A stretch of 38,728 nucleotides of DNA from a virus (Duplodnaviria > Heunggongvirae > Uroviricota > Caudoviricetes): IMG/VR virus record IMGVR_UViG_648231705_000004. One strand, 5' to 3'. The position numbers were made by a program, and so were the translations under genes. Position 1 is the stretch's first letter. Every line of letters starts with the position of its first letter. Under the pieces are notes generated by a model, which did no database searches, had not been told where the DNA came from, and worked only from the letters and a program-made list of their open reading frames with translations. Shown in pieces: positions 2,841 to 12,291 of the stretch.

Positions 2841-3142
2841 TGTTCAGTATCTCCGGTGTACATGACGCCCAGCCGTGCGGCAAGGCGTTCCAGTTTTTTC
2901 TGTTTGTGGAAGTCAATCAGCCGGTCCATTCCCTGAAGGCGCAGCTGCTCTGTCATGATTTCCACGTCTGCCAGCTCTGCCGCGAGGTCACTTTCGCTGC
3001 CCTGTCCGTTCAGGTTGCGGGCGGCACTGGCCGCCAGTTCAGCGGCCTCTTCTGTCAGTTTCAGGGCCTGTGCGTCCGGCCCGAAACGCTGCAGGGCCAG
3101 ACGGTAGAGGGCGGTGCGGGTGAGTTCGGTGTTCCGTGTCAT
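2837..3142 (-). CDS. MazG-like nucleotide pyrophosphohydrolase-like protein (101 aa)
   Basis: Paired acidic helices LTEEAAELAASAARN...LAAELADVEIMTEQL resemble the MazG/HisE EExxE...ExxD signature; GAGGG RBS. Confidence 0.5.
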   Translation of the reverse strand: MTRNTELTRTALYRLALQRFGPDAQALKLTEEAAELAASAARNLNGQGSESDLAAELADVEIMTEQLRLQGMDRLIDFHKQKKLERLAARLGVMYTGDTEQ

Positions 3143-3151
3143 GCCGCGCCC

Positions 3152-3424
3152 TCAGTGTTTCCGGTCGACGGTGATGTGCAGGCCGCCTTCTGCAGTGGTT
3201 TCCATCCGGTACGGCACATCGTGCTCTGCCGTGTGGGTGAGTGTGTTCACCAGTACCTGCAGGGCAGCCGCCTTTCCGTTGGTCGCCACAATGGCCTGAG
3301 CGGTCATGCTGATTAGCGCCGTCAGGACGTGCTTCACATCGGTGAGGTCGCGGCATTCACACTCGTTGACATAGTGTTCAACAAGGGTTCGGGTGCGCTG
3401 TCGTGCTTCCTGTGGGGTAATCAT
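3152..3424 (-). CDS. hypothetical early protein (90 aa)
   Basis: ORF with GGAGG RBS; start overlaps stop of upstream gene (ATGA at 3421-3424). Confidence 0.5.
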   Translation of the reverse strand: MITPQEARQRTRTLVEHYVNECECRDLTDVKHVLTALISMTAQAIVATNGKAAALQVLVNTLTHTAEHDVPYRMETTAEGGLHITVDRKH

Positions 3425-3615
3425 TGCGAGTCCTCCCTGTCAGGGCGGGAGAATTCCATGACGGGCACGTCTGCCGAAAAATGCTGACTGCAGTACGGAC
3501 AGACCAGGGTGACGCGTACTGCAGGTACGTGGTACTTACCGGACATCACGGCGATGGCGCTGTGAAAACGCAGGGCTGTTATATCCCTCTCGCACTGAAT
3601 ACATTTAAATATCAT
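3421..3615 (-). CDS. small Cys-rich (zinc-ribbon-like) protein (64 aa)
   Basis: CxxC...CxxC pattern (CIQCE ... CPYCSQ); GAGGAG RBS upstream of ATG 3615. Confidence 0.5.
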   Translation of the reverse strand: MIFKCIQCERDITALRFHSAIAVMSGKYHVPAVRVTLVCPYCSQHFSADVPVMEFSRPDREDSQ

Positions 3616-3711
3616 GATTTAATTCTCCTCTGTTTCCGGCGTGCAGAAGCCCACGGCGCTGATGCCGGAATAAAAAAGAAAAGGCTGTTTTAAATAGCTT
3701 ATATGCTGTTT

Positions 3712-4242
3712 TTACTGCACATTCTGCTCAAAAGGAATTATTGAAAAATCCTCAATATCACTTTTTATGGTAATACCGGGAATATTTTTCACGGCGTCCT
3801 TTTCATTCAGGATGGCGTCTTTATTTATTTCCTCCTTTACACGGATAAAGCGCTCAAGCCCCAGACGTCTCAGTAATTCAATAACATTATCCGCCCCACG
3901 GATACTGACTGATGGCGGACGGTTTCGCCACTGCACCTCGCCGGTGGTGAGGTTAGCGAACTTCACCTTCCCGTTGCCGGTCAGTTCATTACGGTGTGCC
4001 TCACACCATGTCTGAATACCGGACTGCAGTTCGGCCATGCGTTTTTTCAGGCTCTCGGTGAGCGGGGCATAACGTGCGGTGATGTCGCCAATGGTGTCAT
4101 TCATTTCTGTTTCAGCCCTGACCAGTTCACGTTGCGCGTCACCAAGCAGTCTGATTCCCTCAATGACCTCTTCGCGTGTCCCCGGCACCCAGAGTGCTGC
4201 TGCGGCTTTGATACGTTTTGCCCCTTTTGTACTTTTTGCCAT
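3712..4242 (-). CDS. gam: host-nuclease inhibitor Gam (Mu Gam / Ku-like DNA end-binding protein)
   Basis: 176 aa; from memory, matches Mu Gam along its length (e.g. ...ETEMND...WCEA...VRPPSVSIRG...GITVKSDIEDFSIIPFEQ); GGAGGA RBS. Confidence 0.9.
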   Translation of the reverse strand: MAKSTKGAKRIKAAAALWVPGTREEVIEGIRLLGDAQRELVRAETEMNDTIGDITARYAPLTESLKKRMAELQSGIQTWCEAHRNELTGNGKVKFANLTTGEVQWRNRPPSVSIRGADNVIELLRRLGLERFIRVKEEINKDAILNEKDAVKNIPGITIKSDIEDFSIIPFEQNVQ

Positions 4243-4541: not shown

Positions 4542-5708
4542 TTAAACCCCTTTGACAACGTCAGCGTTGACCTGTGGAACCCCGATTTCAGCGGCCAGAT
4601 TCATGGCGGCTATTACCAGGTTACTGACGGCCAGCGGATACAGCAGGCTGACCATATTTTTACGATGACTTCCCGGATTGCTCAGGCGGGCACGTATGGC
4701 ATCCACTGCGCTGGCGTCCATAATGTCCGTCAGTTGTTTACCGGCCCGTTGCAGTTTGAACGTCAGAAACTCTTCAAGGTTATTGTCCAGAGGCAGAAGT
4801 TCGACCACCTCACAGCGCTGAACGACTTCACGGACTTCCATATTGCGTTCAGACAGTTTTGTCGCCAGTTCCGGCTGGCCAATCAGCACGATGGACAGCA
4901 GTTTTTTGAAACCGGACTCCAGCTCAAAAAAGCGTTTGAGGTGTTTCAGTGTCGGAATAGGCAGACTGTGGGCCTCCTCAATCACCAGAACGTGGCTGAA
5001 CCCCGCCTGGCTGCTGTCTTTCAGGACGCGATGCAACTGGCGAAAGCGGGCGTCCTGACTGCGTCTGATGCTTTCCAGTGGTGCGATGGTACTGATAATG
5101 GCTTCGGCAATCGCTGCTGCCTTCAGGGTTTTCCCTTTCACATCGTTGTCTTCCATAGCGATGATGTATGGCTCGATAACAATTACCGGCGCATTCTCGC
5201 GGTTGATACGTTCAGTCAGGTCGCGGCGCAGCGTGGATTTACCCGCACCGGACTCACCGATGACGGCCATAAACCCACCATGACGGGCTGTCTGGTACAA
5301 CGCCTCACGCACGTAGCGAATGTCCGGGGTGGTGAACACATCATCAGAACCCTGAATGGCTTCGTCGGCGAACGGGTCACGGAAAAGACCAAACGCTTTT
5401 TTGGTTGCTGGAAATAACACCTGTTTTTTGAGTAACATATTCTCTTCCTCACTGAGGCTCGTTTTATCTGTGGTACCCGCTGTACGGGGCGTGGCCGCGC
5501 CCTGTACAGCATCAAAACTCTTCGTTGTATCAATCCCCTGACTTTCCAGCCAGGACGCAAGACGCCGGCGCACTTCTCCGGGGCTGGTGCGGGGCCACGC
5601 GTTATGATTCACAATCTGGGCCAGCGTGGCCTCAGAAACATCGACAGCTCTCGCCACCACCGCCTGTGGAATACGGGCCTCTTTCAGTTGCTGCTTCAGT
5701 ACCAGCAT
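4542..5708 (-). CDS. MuB-like AAA+ ATPase (transposition target-DNA activator)
   Basis: ORF 4542..5747(-); likely start ATG 5708 with GGAGGG RBS; Walker A GESGAGKST; N-terminal HTH-like region; immediately downstream of the transposase as in Mu A-B. Confidence 0.88.
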   Translation of the reverse strand: MLVLKQQLKEARIPQAVVARAVDVSEATLAQIVNHNAWPRTSPGEVRRRLASWLESQGIDTTKSFDAVQGAATPRTAGTTDKTSLSEEENMLLKKQVLFPATKKAFGLFRDPFADEAIQGSDDVFTTPDIRYVREALYQTARHGGFMAVIGESGAGKSTLRRDLTERINRENAPVIVIEPYIIAMEDNDVKGKTLKAAAIAEAIISTIAPLESIRRSQDARFRQLHRVLKDSSQAGFSHVLVIEEAHSLPIPTLKHLKRFFELESGFKKLLSIVLIGQPELATKLSERNMEVREVVQRCEVVELLPLDNNLEEFLTFKLQRAGKQLTDIMDASAVDAIRARLSNPGSHRKNMVSLLYPLAVSNLVIAAMNLAAEIGVPQVNADVVKGV

Positions 5709-8728: not shown

Positions 8729-8774
8729 ACCTCTTTTGCGATATGTGATAACCTTTTACAAAGACTCAAAATCT

Positions 8775-9063: not shown

Positions 9064-9402
9064 ATGATCGGGTTACGTATTAAAGAAGAAAGAGAGCGTC
9101 TATCTCTTACACAGCAAGGGTTGGCTGATGCTATAGGTGTGGCAAAGAGAACTTTCATTGATTGGGAAAAAGATCGCACTTCTCCTACTGCAGTGCAGTT
9201 ATCTGCACTATCAGAAATCGGTGTAGATATTTTGTATGTAGTTACTGGGGTGCGGAGTCAGCCTGTTGTTGCACCTTATGTGTCACAAGAAAAGAAAGAG
9301 TTAATGGATGCATTCGACGAAATGAGCCCCGAACAACGGAGGGCAATTCTTGAGGTCGGCAAAGTCTTCATTCAACCCAAACCAAGCAAACTCGCAGGCT
9401 GA
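9064..9402 (+). CDS. HTH XRE-family (CI/C-type) repressor, putative lysogeny repressor
   Basis: ORF 8911..9402; likely start ATG 9064 (MIGLRIKEERERLSLTQQGLADAIGVAKRTFIDWEKDR... classic XRE helix-turn-helix); divergent from early operon. Confidence 0.75.
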   Translation: MIGLRIKEERERLSLTQQGLADAIGVAKRTFIDWEKDRTSPTAVQLSALSEIGVDILYVVTGVRSQPVVAPYVSQEKKELMDAFDEMSPEQRRAILEVGKVFIQPKPSKLAG

Positions 9403-9487: not shown

Positions 9488-9519
9488 ACCGGAAAGCATT
9501 GTGCTTTCCGGTTTTGTTT
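9488..9519 (+). terminator. Rho-independent terminator downstream of repressor gene
   Basis: Stem ACCGGAAAGC / GCTTTCCGGT, loop ATTGT, followed by TTTTGTTT. Confidence 0.55.
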
Positions 9520-10283
9520 CAGAAGTTGCAGATTACCAGTTCACGGCGCGGCGTGGATTTCCCCGCCAGACTGTAGTTGATGTTCACTGTCTGTATGTTC
9601 AGTCCAGTGAACACCTCGCGCATCTGTGGGATATCGTTCACCGAAATTATCATTTTTCCTCTGATGCACCGGGCCAGCTCTGCCAGCCGCGAGTAGTTCC
9701 CTTCAGGAAAATCCACACCATAGCCTTCCGTACCCAGGTACGGTGGGTCGCAGTAGAACAGTGTGTGCGGACGATCATAACGCTCAATGCACTGTTGCCA
9801 GTCCATGTGTTCTATGACTGTTCTGGAAAGCCGCAGGTGTGCTGTTGACAGTTCTTCTTCAATACGCAGCAGGTTGAAGCGTGGCGGGGATGTGGTGGAG
9901 GTACCGAAGCTGTGCTCTGCCACCTTGCCGCCAAACGCCTGCTTCTGAAGGTAGTAGAACCGTGCCGCACGCTGGATATCCGTCAGTGTTTCTTCCGGGG
10001 TGATCTGCAGCCATTTGTAGATCTGACGGCTGACCAGCGCCCATTTGAACTGGCGGACAAATTCTTCCAGGTGATGCTTTACCACCCGGTACAGATTCAC
10101 CAGTTCACCGTTGATATCATTAATGACTTCGATCTTGCCGGGTGTCTTAAGAAAATAGAGCGCTGCTGCCCCACAAAACGGCTCCACATAACATTCATGC
10201 GCCGGAAACAGCGGCAGAATGTGTTTTGCAAGGCGGCGTTTGCCACCAATCCATGGAACGATGGGTAATGTCTGCATTTTCAT
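9519..10283 (-). CDS. DNA adenine methyltransferase (Dam-type N6-adenine MTase)
   Basis: 254 aa; AdoMet-binding motif EPFCGAAALYF and catalytic DPPY motif (FYCDPPYLG). Confidence 0.9.
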   Translation of the reverse strand: MKMQTLPIVPWIGGKRRLAKHILPLFPAHECYVEPFCGAAALYFLKTPGKIEVINDINGELVNLYRVVKHHLEEFVRQFKWALVSRQIYKWLQITPEETLTDIQRAARFYYLQKQAFGGKVAEHSFGTSTTSPPRFNLLRIEEELSTAHLRLSRTVIEHMDWQQCIERYDRPHTLFYCDPPYLGTEGYGVDFPEGNYSRLAELARCIRGKMIISVNDIPQMREVFTGLNIQTVNINYSLAGKSTPRRELVICNF

Positions 10284-10388
10284 AATCTGTAAGCCTTTTA
10301 CAATTACTAAAAATATGGCAGGCTAGTCTGGTCTCGCGAGACTGACTGAACCTCGGTCGGCTCACAGTGCATTCCTGTGGGACGATGG

Positions 10389-10426
10389 CCAGCCCGGATT
10401 TCGGGTTCCGGGCTGGTCGTTCTTTC
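10389..10426 (+). terminator. orphan terminator-like hairpin (possible end of a small plus-strand transcript)
   Basis: Perfect 10-bp stem CCAGCCCGGA / TCCGGGCTGG, 8-nt loop, followed by TCGTTCTTTC; no plus-strand ORF upstream. Confidence 0.35.
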
Positions 10427-10472
10427 ATGATGCGGCAGGGATAGTGGGATTTCTGTTAATGTGGTTTAGGGA

Positions 10473-10688
10473 TTATCCGGGGCGATTTTCTGACCTTATC
10501 CGGTCCAGGGCATAAGTAATACCTTCTGCAAAAACAGAAGTATCAAACTGCTTTTGTATTCCCTGAAAATGAAAAGCGGCACGACAGACACTCAGTTCTC
10601 CGCGATGTAACCGGATAATATCTTCCAGAACATTGTTCACTGCTTCAGCACGGCGCTGATGTTCTGTTAACGTTAATCGGGGATTCAT
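10473..10688 (-). CDS. hypothetical protein (71 aa), accessory block
   Basis: Strong RBS AAGGAG 7 nt upstream of ATG 10688; no recognisable motif. Confidence 0.5.
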   Translation of the reverse strand: MNPRLTLTEHQRRAEAVNNVLEDIIRLHRGELSVCRAAFHFQGIQKQFDTSVFAEGITYALDRIRSENRPG

Positions 10689-11091
10689 GATGCACTCCTT
10701 AAATGATGATTTTTATGCACTCACCGGCAAAATATTCTGCCGATTACTGAACACGCATCCGGCACCTCAGGTTTTGATTTATTCTGGTTTTTTCGATATC
10801 CCGGACCAGGTTGATCACGACCAGAAAAAGTGCCGGTATTTTATTGATACGCTGATATGGCTTCGGGATAACAGCTATATTCGTTACTCTCAGTTGCTGG
10901 CTGTGGGAGCGGCTGATGTCGTCCTCACGGAAAAAACGCTCCGTCTGCTCAATGCCACGCCGACCCTTCTGCAGCCCCGGCCCGCACCATTTAAAGAGTC
11001 ACTTCTGGATGCAGTAAAAACCGGTGAAAATGCAGTCATCGCTGAATGCGTATCCCGGATTATGCGTTACGTGTTTAATGAACGTAAGTGA
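10687..11091 (+). CDS. hypothetical protein (134 aa), accessory block
   Basis: ATG 10687/10690 preceded by GGGGA; start codon overlaps that of the divergent 71-aa gene; fills the 378-bp gap between the two minus-strand genes. Confidence 0.5.
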   Translation: MMHSLNDDFYALTGKIFCRLLNTHPAPQVLIYSGFFDIPDQVDHDQKKCRYFIDTLIWLRDNSYIRYSQLLAVGAADVVLTEKTLRLLNATPTLLQPRPAPFKESLLDAVKTGENAVIAECVSRIMRYVFNERK

Positions 11092-11810
11092 GGTTTATCC
11101 GCTGTCTGCATAATCCCGATAGCCAGTGCGAGGGGAAGTAATTCCGGGGAAACTCTTTCAAACAGCGACTCCCATTCTCCTCTCGCCATCACTCTGTCCA
11201 GCCCGCCCCCCAGTTGCATTTCAGCAATCTTCCTGATTTCCCGGAACAACGCCGCTTTGATCTCTTCGTGCTCAGCTTTATTTTCCGGTGTCAGAATGTA
11301 TTCGTCGAAGAACCGGGGAGGCTGGTTAACGGGGAGCGTGTTCACCGGGATGTGTTCCTGTTTCCCGTACTTCGGGGCAGAAAAACATTCTGTTGGCTGA
11401 CCGGTGAGTTTACGTAGCTCCTTCATGAGCAGCTCCTGATCGTAAACTGTCATCAGTGCCGCAATGGTGGCATGCAGTGCATCGGGCAGTATCCAGGGTT
11501 GCCGGCCCGTGGGGCATATAACATCCAGCAGCTCATTCGTCCGACAGATACGCTCCTCGCCGTATGACAACAGGCCCTGTCCCGTGTATTCCTCCAGCCT
11601 GATCACTGTGCCACCCCGTGGCTTCTGCCAGGTCGTCAGATCATCGCCACTCATACGCCGCTCATCATCTACGTCTGCAGCATCGACAATGACGCTGCCC
11701 CCGAATTCCTGTTTCACCACTTCCTCTATCCGCGCCAATATGTAACTTTTACCGCTGCCCACAGGACCGGACACGGTGACAGTGATGACCGGATTCAGTG
11801 TCTGCGTCAT
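11067..11810 (-). CDS. P-loop NTPase / small kinase-like protein (247 aa), function unknown
   Basis: GAGGAG RBS; N-terminal Walker A GPVGSGKS followed by VIVDAAD strand, as in P-loop kinases; C-terminal ~150 aa unassignable. Confidence 0.7.
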   Translation of the reverse strand: MTQTLNPVITVTVSGPVGSGKSYILARIEEVVKQEFGGSVIVDAADVDDERRMSGDDLTTWQKPRGGTVIRLEEYTGQGLLSYGEERICRTNELLDVICPTGRQPWILPDALHATIAALMTVYDQELLMKELRKLTGQPTECFSAPKYGKQEHIPVNTLPVNQPPRFFDEYILTPENKAEHEEIKAALFREIRKIAEMQLGGGLDRVMARGEWESLFERVSPELLPLALAIGIMQTADKPHLRSLNT

Positions 11811-11940
11811 ATCGTATTCTCCTCTGTGAATAATTCATCGTTTATCCTGCACATCCCGTATCCCCGGCTCTCTTAACGCGCTTTAAAATCCTTCGCGCCC
11901 TGTATTTGTGATGCTGTCTCCACCAGACAAGGAGACACAC
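11811..11940. promoter_or_regulatory. divergent promoter region (first late promoter and promoter of the P-loop gene)
   Basis: 130-bp spacer between divergently oriented genes at the start of the plus-strand late cluster; no sigma70-like -35 recognised, as expected for Mor/C-activated promoters. Confidence 0.4.
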
Positions 11941-12291
11941 ATGAAAAACCTGAAAAAATTCATTCCCCCTGTTAAAAAACCTCGCCTCAGCGGCTGGCTG
12001 CTGACCTCAGTGCTGTTGCTGGGCACCATCGCTCTGGTCTCGCCACAGCAGTTGCCTGTTGTGATCTACAAGCTGGCACTCATCACGCTGGCAGCAGTGC
12101 TGGGTTACTGGCTTGACCGTTCGCTCTTCCCCAAAGCCCGTCCCGGTCAGTACCTGAAACATGACGACAGGCTGATGGCTGATGGGCGTTTCCCGGTACA
12201 GACCGGCCTTCACCTGGTGTTTTCTGCTGCGTTAATCCGCCGTGCACTGATTGTTGCAGCGGTCTGTCTGGCTGTTGCGATGGGGCTTTAA
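11941..12291 (+). CDS. membrane protein at head of lysis cassette (holin-like, 116 aa)
   Basis: ATG 11941 with AGGAGA RBS (ORF 11908..12291); several hydrophobic helices; immediately upstream of the endolysin. Confidence 0.55.
   Translation: MKNLKKFIPPVKKPRLSGWLLTSVLLLGTIALVSPQQLPVVIYKLALITLAAVLGYWLDRSLFPKARPGQYLKHDDRLMADGRFPVQTGLHLVFSAALIRRALIVAAVCLAVAMGL

Follow-up and report, generated by a model that had tools for sequence, protein, structure and literature searches.

The 38,728-nucleotide stretch of viral DNA that we analysed, called the window below (IMG/VR record IMGVR_UViG_648231705_000004), is a BcepMu-like (genus Bcepmuvirus) transposable prophage of Escherichia coli. Between its repressor and Dam methyltransferase genes on one side and its holin gene on the other lies a block of three genes, which we call g71, g134 and g247 after the lengths of their products in amino acids (aa). 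From homology breakpoints and composition we find that this block is a mosaic and not one three-gene unit: a backbone unit, made of a phosphate-loop (P-loop) protein gene, an RNA leader and Dam, has been joined by an imported cassette. As to what the cassette does, we tentatively favour a non-enzymatic binding or regulatory switch module, inserted antisense into the P-loop–Dam operon. The parts of the region, with positions in the window, are as follows.

9519..10283, minus strand: Dam-family N6-adenine DNA methyltransferase, which closes the minus-strand unit begun by the mini P-loop gene.
10284..10430, minus strand: putative 5' leader RNA of Dam, 147 nucleotides (nt), four helices, resting on fold z, conservation and covariation; unseen by the first-pass annotation.
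10473..10688, minus strand: g71, 71 aa, hypothetical protein in RefSeq/PGAP.
10687..11091, plus strand: g134, 134 aa, hypothetical protein in RefSeq/PGAP.
11067..11810, minus strand: g247, 247 aa, hypothetical protein in RefSeq/PGAP.
About 10428..11345, genes on both strands: imported cassette of about 0.9 kb, comprising g71, g134 and the last ~93 codons of g247, placed by homology breakpoints and the drop in GC and GC3 (GC content at third codon positions).
11067..11330, minus strand: C-module (g247 residues ~161-247, motif LDRVMARGEWESLF...LLPLALAIG), which belongs to the cassette and overlaps the g134 3' end by 25 nt.
11331..11582, minus strand: middle module (g247 residues ~77-160, 'PDALHATIAAL..YDQELLMKELRK'), the native C-terminus of the backbone protein, GC 0.563.
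11583..11810, minus strand: mini P-loop N-domain (g247 residues 1-76), strand-GPVGSGKS-helix-strand-loop-strand.
11811..11940, no strand: divergent intergenic region of 130 nt from the P-loop gene to the holin, conserved in spacing and orientation.

The elements from which the first-pass annotation had built its description of the block were all present. These were the three open reading frames (WP_001069609.1, WP_000972292.1 and WP_000194949.1 for g71, g134 and g247), the 2-nt head-to-head overlap of the g71 and g134 starts (tCATGatg), where each Shine-Dalgarno sequence lies within the partner's coding sequence, the convergent 25-nt overlap of the g134 and g247 3' ends (11067-11091), and the peptides GPVGSGKS (residues 15-22) and VIVDAADVDDE in the g247 translation. 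None of the three proteins had been placed in a known family, and our scans of Pfam, NCBIfam, PADLOC and the Protein Data Bank (PDB) likewise gave no assignment for any of them. The three families are already catalogued as PHROGs without assigned function, and the proteins matched over their full length phrog_4490 (g71, 1.6e-52), phrog_2266 (g134, 6e-44) and phrog_3787 (g247, 4e-164). Because of these full-length matches, the distant homologues of g134 described below and a ratio of nonsynonymous to synonymous substitution rates (dN/dS) of about 0.2 in g247, compared with 0.03-0.12 in Dam, g71, g134 and g247 are, by sequence criteria, real genes.

The block had been described as richer in AT than the flanking genes, and a windowed measurement did find a dip, its GC content of 0.506 standing in the 12th percentile of equal-sized windows (window mean 0.549). 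The dip is, however, confined to g71 (0.444), g134 (0.472) and the last third of g247 (0.504), whereas the first two-thirds of g247 (0.56) are like the phage backbone. GC3 is 0.33 in g71 and 0.50 in g134 against about 0.61-0.68 in backbone genes, and the composition boundary lies inside g247. Homology with cassette-less E. coli prophages ends at position 11345 on the right (H23-H26; L005) and at about 10427 on the left (H27/H28), and the span of about 0.9 kb between these breakpoints coincides with the composition dip. Alignment of g247 variants separated three parts, residues 1-76, about 77-160 and about 161-247; what had been taken for a single unassignable C-terminal region of about 150 aa is actually two separable modules, the last one from the imported cassette. 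The middle module closes the 141-aa 'ABC transporter ATPase' variants and the proteins P0051, P0053 and P0074. E. coli relatives with P-loop variants of 141 or 158 aa, both named 'ABC transporter ATPase' by NCBI, have neither g71 nor g134 and no C-module, and in the cassette-less prophage L028, which lacks the pair, Dam comes directly after the P-loop gene on the same strand. A Serratia prophage has, in this order, Dam, 73 aa (minus), 139 aa (plus), 89 aa (minus) and holin. We show with these comparisons that the backbone of BcepMu-like enterobacterial prophages includes a minus-strand unit of a P-loop gene with a swappable tail, the leader and Dam, directed away from the holin. The simplest reading is that a cassette of C-module (leftward), g134 (rightward) and g71 (leftward) would have recombined into this backbone, fusing the C-module in frame to the P-loop gene. 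A single three-gene defence or toxin cassette, as first proposed, does not agree with such a mosaic, and no PADLOC defence or toxin–antitoxin model was matched.

The synteny comparison bore out the suggestion of an accessory slot of variable content between repressor and late operon, as this content is present, absent or replaced among collinear relatives and its composition is unlike that of the backbone. The slot is occupied by gp18-20 in BcepMu, by a DUF2441 protein in Klebsiella phage KP12 and in L039, and by two different orphan genes in L005, and L028 is without the pair. The claim that the block has no counterpart in the canonical gene order therefore stood for BcepMu with its gp18-20, but not within the E. 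coli lineage, where most genomes (499 of 636) carry the g71/g134 pair. The DUF2441 protein, a single gene product of 188 aa, is encoded opposite the P-loop strand in both KP12 (L002 4956-5522) and L039 (4242-4808). Ten alternative cargo proteins of the slot gave no PADLOC match and no Pfam match above threshold, and no known defence system was present in the slot in any relative examined. As in the moron slots of P2 (gpA-gpQ) and BcepMu (gp18-20), the position is fixed, here with repressor and Dam on one side and holin on the other, the content varies between close relatives, the composition is odd and the genes are mainly orphans; the P2 gpA-gpQ hotspot even contains the same g134 module. The slot differs from those in that the pair is the E. 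coli majority allele, that an in-frame fusion joins some of the cargo to a backbone gene and that known defence systems are lacking in the relatives examined.

As the conserved core of the cassette, g134 belongs to a family that connects the BcepMu-like prophages with P2-like phages. Full-length homologues share 51% identity in Serratia and about 30% in P2-like phages, in three of which (Midge, Klebsiella ST147-VIM1phi7.1 and Salmonella FSL SP-004) tblastn found proteins of 143 aa with ~30% identity over 92-93% of the length. Each of these three genes has a 63-64-aa gene on the opposite strand that overlaps its ATG by 2 nt, and the pairs are positioned between gpA and gpQ or proximal to cos, with other cargo (Fic, a 316-aa 'polymerase', DinI) beside them. 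Further BcepMu-like prophages encode g134 homologues of 147-168 aa, convergent and overlapping with a P-loop gene whose product has in its tail the C-module seen in g247 ("DWVTSRxxWExxL"), and usually accompanied by small divergent genes (69-84 aa). The family as a whole ranges from 126 to 168 aa in the two phage groups, and frame and length are kept with identity down to 27-34%. The overlaps are kept as well: in seven homologue pairs, three of them P2-like, the head-to-head starts lie within 1 nt of each other (Serratia) or share 2-8 nt, the ribosome-binding sites falling inside the partner's coding sequence, and convergent 3' overlaps of 4-54 nt were found in 6 of 6 lineages.

We compared the g134 family with known folds. 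It shows the pattern 'W-L-x-x-N-G-Y-I ... V-x-L-T-E-K-x-L-x-x-L-N', like a recognition helix and wing, and in this it resembles winged-helix proteins (DUF2513/PF10711, T7 gp5.7), all matches being below significance. DUF2513 matched one of seven members (E 0.042), and UniRef names one homologue DUF2513. With profiles of 5-7 sequences, the wing of T7 gp5.7 gave a 14-column local match to the g134 family profile ('LTEK.L..LN'; score 17.0, reached by 2 of 100 shuffles). The similarity to T7 gp5.5/5.7 claimed in the GenBank record of phage Midge was not reproduced with single sequences, and gp5.5 gave no signal with profiles either; we take the gp5.7 match as a weak hint of a winged helix and not as evidence of homology. 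A profile search of the PDB with the g134 family gave no match. The g134 product is thus possibly winged-helix-like, going by weak hints of this kind. A scan of GTDB with one genome per species detected no g134 relatives; the prophages to which the family is confined are missing from these representatives.

Some prophages have a second g134 paralogue of 126 aa (hhalign probability 99%) that has no small partner. This paralogue is inserted between g71 and Dam (L010/L011 7333-7773; L055 5612-5956), and on the g71-proximal side of the insert there is a duplicate of the first 56 nt of Dam, which resembles a recombination scar. In the g134-null alleles of L052 and L053 (~4746-4799) about 325 nt are deleted and 18 codons are left before the frame is lost, with g71, g247 and Dam intact; such alleles are rare, at most 7 of 499 E. 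coli genomes covering the pair only partially. The GenBank record of the isolated phage PhiKM (PQ738613.1; L001 5290-5669) leaves g134 unannotated. Neither the 157-aa convergent partner in L037 nor the gene of 113 aa in L038 is related to g134.

The two minus-strand flanks of g134 were compared with each other. The g71 product is a small orphan with a recurring motif, helical-looking from its sequence alone; homologues of 69-84 aa were found in Serratia, L033 and L035, with ~30% identity in Serratia and 15-18% in other lineages, and its dN/dS of 0.1-0.7 is relaxed. The C-module has a free-standing homologue, the 89-aa gene of the Serratia prophage, which has no P-loop. In a profile–profile comparison (hhalign) the g71 family scored 25.7 against the C-module (P 1.9e-4), a score reached by none of 300 column shuffles, none of which exceeded 18.4. 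This suggests that g71 and the C-module are paralogous. Searches of the PDB with the small-protein family and with the C-module gave no match. The C-module and a convergent g134-family gene occurred together in 6 of 6 lineages and were jointly absent in 4 of 4; since the two are physically adjacent, this co-occurrence is no proof of a functional link.

The N-domain of g247 was also found in unrelated phages. A HMMER search of 1.84 billion representative proteins returned 55 clusters at E<=1e-3, and most of the informative full-length matches, fragments of g247 itself excluded, covered residues 1-76 only. The C-terminal parts of these relatives are mutually unrelated or shuffled and contain no Pfam domain. 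Free-standing homologues of 68-90 aa, for which there is no Pfam family, occur in unrelated phages including several with high GC content (L041 2471-2719; L066-L076). In Vibrio phage 1.101.O such a gene lies between the genes of thymidylate synthase and dihydrofolate reductase, 2.4 kb from a Dam gene, and in L072 it (~3992-4210) comes directly after a DPPY methyltransferase gene (3115-3930). In every BcepMu-like locus examined that carries the P-loop gene, for which Dam is normally the next gene, it stands back-to-back with the holin at a spacing of about 130 nt, as read in 23 IMG/VR loci (L042-L053, L055-L065), in L054 after a coordinate shift and in L028-L039. The promoters of both the P-loop gene and the holin presumably lie in this intergenic region.

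Residues G20, K21, I28, W61 and E74 were invariant in the N-domain alignment of 16 family members, and the Asp of VIVDAAD (D43) varied. Pfam and PDB matches covered only the strand–P-loop–helix element and were sub-threshold, scattered across kinases, ABC proteins, AAA+ proteins and GTPases; the nearest PDB sequence matches include the designed minimal P-loop proteins 9jix and 6c2u, an indication of how far the domain is reduced. The domain shares the strand-GxxGxGK[ST]-helix element with kinase-type P-loop nucleoside triphosphatases (NTPases; zeta toxin PF06414, CoaE, cytidylate kinase) and with ABC ATPases, and differs from them in its length of about 75 aa, its three predicted strands and the fact that all matches stay below curated thresholds. 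An ABC-type ATPase was rejected, as ABC_tran matched residues 4-52 only (E 0.11, 13.6 bits, cut-off 25), and the mini P-loop domain has no ABC signature, no conserved Walker B Asp and no lid. The layout of a small P-loop kinase of the zeta-toxin, polynucleotide-kinase (PNK) or CoaE type, proposed in the first-pass annotation, could not be upheld. Walker A is present, but the conserved unit comprises about 75 aa, the Asp is not conserved, the P-loop matches are non-specific and no complete core of ~180-200 aa exceeded a Pfam gathering threshold. The best Zeta_toxin matches, confined to the P-loop, stayed under the 22.3-bit cut-off: E 0.057 for P0017 (141 aa), about 0.01 for P0056/P0059 and 0.0013 (18.6 bits) for L067, one of the free-standing proteins; two such free-standing homologues spanned E 0.001-0.085. 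Because domain size, Walker B and thresholds all fail, the zeta/PNK/CoaE reading fails, and the N-domain remains, to judge by these comparisons, an undescribed small phosphate-loop domain with swappable tails. It may represent a natural minimal P-loop family that binds nucleotide or phosphate with roughly half of the normal NTPase fold, and it may act as a portable handle for interchangeable partner-binding tails. A 182-aa P-loop variant (L010/L011 6001-6549; P0011, P0015), found on many contigs, has an internal deletion that removes the third strand, W61 and E74 and keeps the C-module.

Dam is recognised by Pfam (MethyltransfD12, 5e-29), NCBIfam (TIGR00571, above cut-off) and PADLOC (MTase_II, 7.5e-113, a generic model). 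Its leader folded from the single sequence with z = -3.6, and none of 200 shuffles was as stable. In an alignment of eight divergent prophages, 95% of the cells of 40 pairs were paired, compared with 33-49% when the partners were slid; seven pairs had compensatory changes, a number reached by 1 of 500 shuffles, and the covariation score was reached by none of 500. Helices 2 and 4, which cover AAAAGGCUUACAG, pair the Dam Shine-Dalgarno sequence (AAAAGG) and the bases following it with the upstream CUGUGAGCC segment. The changes in helix 2 are G-U only, and its support therefore consists of conservation and context. The leader is kept whatever gene precedes it, whether g71, the 73-aa protein or the P-loop protein, and also in the absence of the cassette (L028). 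We regard it as a candidate translational control element that would bury the ribosome-binding site of Dam. A scan with Rfam gave no match at the leader and only two chance-level snoRNA matches (E 0.17-0.58) inside g247.

In the com-mom operon of phage Mu, the start site of mom is held in a stem-loop that is opened by the Com protein. The arrangement here is similar in that a transposable phage has a DNA-modification gene whose ribosome-binding site is predicted to be sequestered in a conserved stem, with a small upstream gene in the same transcription unit. It differs in that the gene is Dam and not Mom, no Com-like zinc-finger protein is present, and the leader has four helices, no sequence similarity and no Rfam match. 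In the GenBank record of PhiKM, Dam begins 90 nt further upstream, in the 3' part of the leader, the segment with the sequestered Shine-Dalgarno sequence. A 77-aa open reading frame at 10195..10428 (minus) was rejected as spurious, as it lies across the start of Dam and the structured leader and matches no family. A 30-nt direct repeat (77% identical, core CCTTTTACAA) at 8743-8772 and 10285-10314 lies just upstream of the starts of the IclR-like gene and Dam, both on the minus strand; the two genes may have a motif for translation initiation or regulation in common, or the repeat may be due to chance.

The flagged interval is 100% identical to the chromosome of E. coli O25:NM 2014EL-1343-2 (NZ_CP024228.1), and phage PhiKM carries the block at 97% identity. 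The early region is read leftward from the minus strand (Mor, gp16, Gam, an ExeA-like B protein, an rve transposase, IclR-like and Ner-like regulators), a CI-type repressor is encoded on the plus strand at 9064-9402, and the first gene of the late operon, at 11941, is that of the holin (Holin_2-3, 1.5e-41), after which comes an SLT endolysin gene. The holin–endolysin region was found in 636 of 5426 complete E. coli genomes, 499 of which have the g71/g134 pair and 527 Dam. With the block sequence matched in 635 of the 5426 and the pair in 499, the block is not a rarity; hosts of the lineage include uropathogenic and ABU 83972-type strains. In NZ_CP024228.1, lambdoid tail genes (a tape-measure gene with a frameshift, the genes of minor tail protein L and of a C40 peptidase, a gene for tail assembly and a truncated open reading frame; L004 1-2525) adjoin the Mu-like prophage just left of window position 1, and the Mu-like prophage has apparently transposed into another prophage.

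For the switch module that we favour as a reading of the cassette, the starting point is that no catalytic domain was found in the cassette proteins in any library searched. The g134 product would be a winged-helix-like binding protein, and g71-type modules, that is g71 and the tethered C-module, would be its likeliest protein partners. The gene would act from its antisense position between the P-loop promoter region and g71-Dam; because of this position, its transcription and minus-strand read-through would interfere with each other. Such mutual interference would produce a reciprocal, either/or switch that also gates the expression of g71 and Dam, and the leader would hold off Dam translation until some factor or upstream ribosome traffic opened the structure. 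The pay-off for the phage would most likely be accessory, in the gene expression of the host or of competitor phages or in the timing of DNA methylation, and core replication is an unlikely target. That the isolated PhiKM holds the block supports carriage by a viable phage.

Several observations weigh against this switch module. The scan for promoter consensus sites was at chance (4 sites, 3.2 expected), as was that for terminators, and the switch is for this reason read purely from the gene layout. AlphaFold2 models of g247 (16-sequence alignment) and g134 (4 sequences) had a low mean predicted local distance difference test score (42.9 and 46.3), reflecting shallow, near-identical alignments; no fold or contact was visible and Foldseek comparison with the PDB gave only noise (E>0.4). 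The 126-aa g134 paralogue has no small partner, so a partner is not obligatory. In the P2-like phages the 63-aa partner had no detectable homology to g71 or to the C-module, 12 of 150 and 19 of 150 shuffles reaching the respective scores. The co-occurrence of the C-module with g134 may reflect travel on one piece of DNA. Very few substitutions separate the E. coli alleles of g134, and the window allele has 5-6 nonsynonymous and 0-2 synonymous changes, which is uninformative.

The cassette may instead be a lysogenic-conversion moron that serves anti-phage defence, superinfection exclusion or abortive infection through g134, alone or together with g71 and the P-loop fusion, a possibility to which we give a rather low probability. 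The moron-like setting supposed in the first-pass annotation was borne out: the slot between repressor and holin varies across relatives, the cassette is unlike the backbone in composition, and the pair of g134 and a small gene recurs between gpA and gpQ of P2-like phages, the old/tin locus, described as an antiviral hotspot (Rousset et al. 2022, PMC9122126). In P4 satellites, many orphan genes at such hotspots proved defensive on testing (PMC13586616). However, the defence-system scan gave no system match for g71, g134 or g247, nor for the ten alternative cargo proteins; PADLOC-DB v2 returned nothing for g71 and g134 and only mad8 (E 0.0046) and SngB (E 0.028) for g247, both via the P-loop. 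The proteins have no recognisable nuclease, NTPase, TIR, Sir2, membrane or other effector domain, the genes beside the P2-like pairs (Fic, the 'polymerase', DinI) could be the real defence genes, and a pair that forms the majority E. coli allele is not one of many fast-swapped systems.

Somewhat less probable still is a role in counter-defence or DNA protection, in which the P-loop protein, g71 and Dam would be made early to methylate phage DNA and neutralise immunity, with g134 as regulator. In cassette-less relatives the P-loop gene lies next to Dam and is read in the same direction, the conserved leader of Dam is a candidate regulatory element, and free-standing mini P-loop genes stand near DNA methyltransferase or nucleotide-metabolism genes, as in the Vibrio phage and L072. 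Anti-defence loci have variable small proteins beside a conserved helix-turn-helix-like gene, and the layout here may be said to recall them. These methyltransferase neighbourhoods are, however, three anecdotes, no similarity to known anti-restriction or anti-CRISPR proteins was found, and the genes are divergent, unlike the co-directional operons of known anti-defence genes.

The trio of g71, g134 and the C-module may also be read as an antisense-nested three-gene switch or immunity module, shared by Mu-like and P2-like phages, in which a binding protein would be flanked, on the opposite strand, by two paralogous antagonists. That the region holds two linked novelties, a minimal P-loop family and this trio as a new switch or immunity module, we consider unlikely. 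So far as our searches reach, the fusion history, the antisense-nested trio with its possibly paralogous flanks and its sharing by Mu-like and P2-like phages are undescribed, as are the mini P-loop family, which has no Pfam model, and the Dam leader. Literature searches found nothing on the four RefSeq accessions or on DUF2513, and publications on Bcepmuvirus with Escherichia do not address the region, going by their titles and abstracts.

A toxin–antitoxin or toxin–immunity system with g247 as a zeta/PNK-like kinase toxin is very improbable. The conserved Walker A, the sub-threshold Zeta_toxin matches of some family members and the tight overlap of the genes speak for it. The conserved domain, free-standing at 68-90 aa, is however far from a kinase core of ~180-200 aa (Pfam model lengths), which is expected to include a lid; the Asp of VIVDAAD varies, and every Pfam or PDB match is to the P-loop element, across all NTPase classes. 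The Serratia trio has no P-loop, and the 182-aa E. coli variant persists although W61 and E74 are lost. The genes are divergent or convergent with overlaps and not co-directional as in type II toxin–antitoxin systems, and no toxin–antitoxin Pfam family was matched. The g134-null alleles, which keep g71, g247 and Dam, and the partnerless paralogue argue against a strict toxin–antitoxin dependency with g134 as essential antitoxin; g134 could itself be a toxin. That the small reading frames are annotation noise, with only Dam and its leader of importance, is hardly credible, since the shortness and AT-richness of g71 and g134, the PhiKM record without g134 and the relaxed dN/dS of g71 are set against the full-length conservation of g134 in two phage groups, the distant g71 homologues, the full-length PHROG matches for all three proteins and the conserved overlap architecture.

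The lineage is present in about one-ninth of complete E. coli genomes and the cassette in roughly three-quarters of those. Should the proposals for the cassette, the mini P-loop family and the Dam leader all fail, the block would be another set of phage orphan genes, and the practical gain would lie in keeping the 'kinase toxin' label and the NCBI name 'ABC transporter ATPase' from spreading. If the cassette does control host or competitor-phage gene expression, or gives immunity, it would be a widespread lysogenic-conversion trait and a new module common to two unrelated temperate phage groups. The Dam leader, if it acts as proposed, would be a new case of a phage DNA-modification enzyme under translational control, and the mini P-loop family bears on the minimum size of a working phosphate-binding domain.

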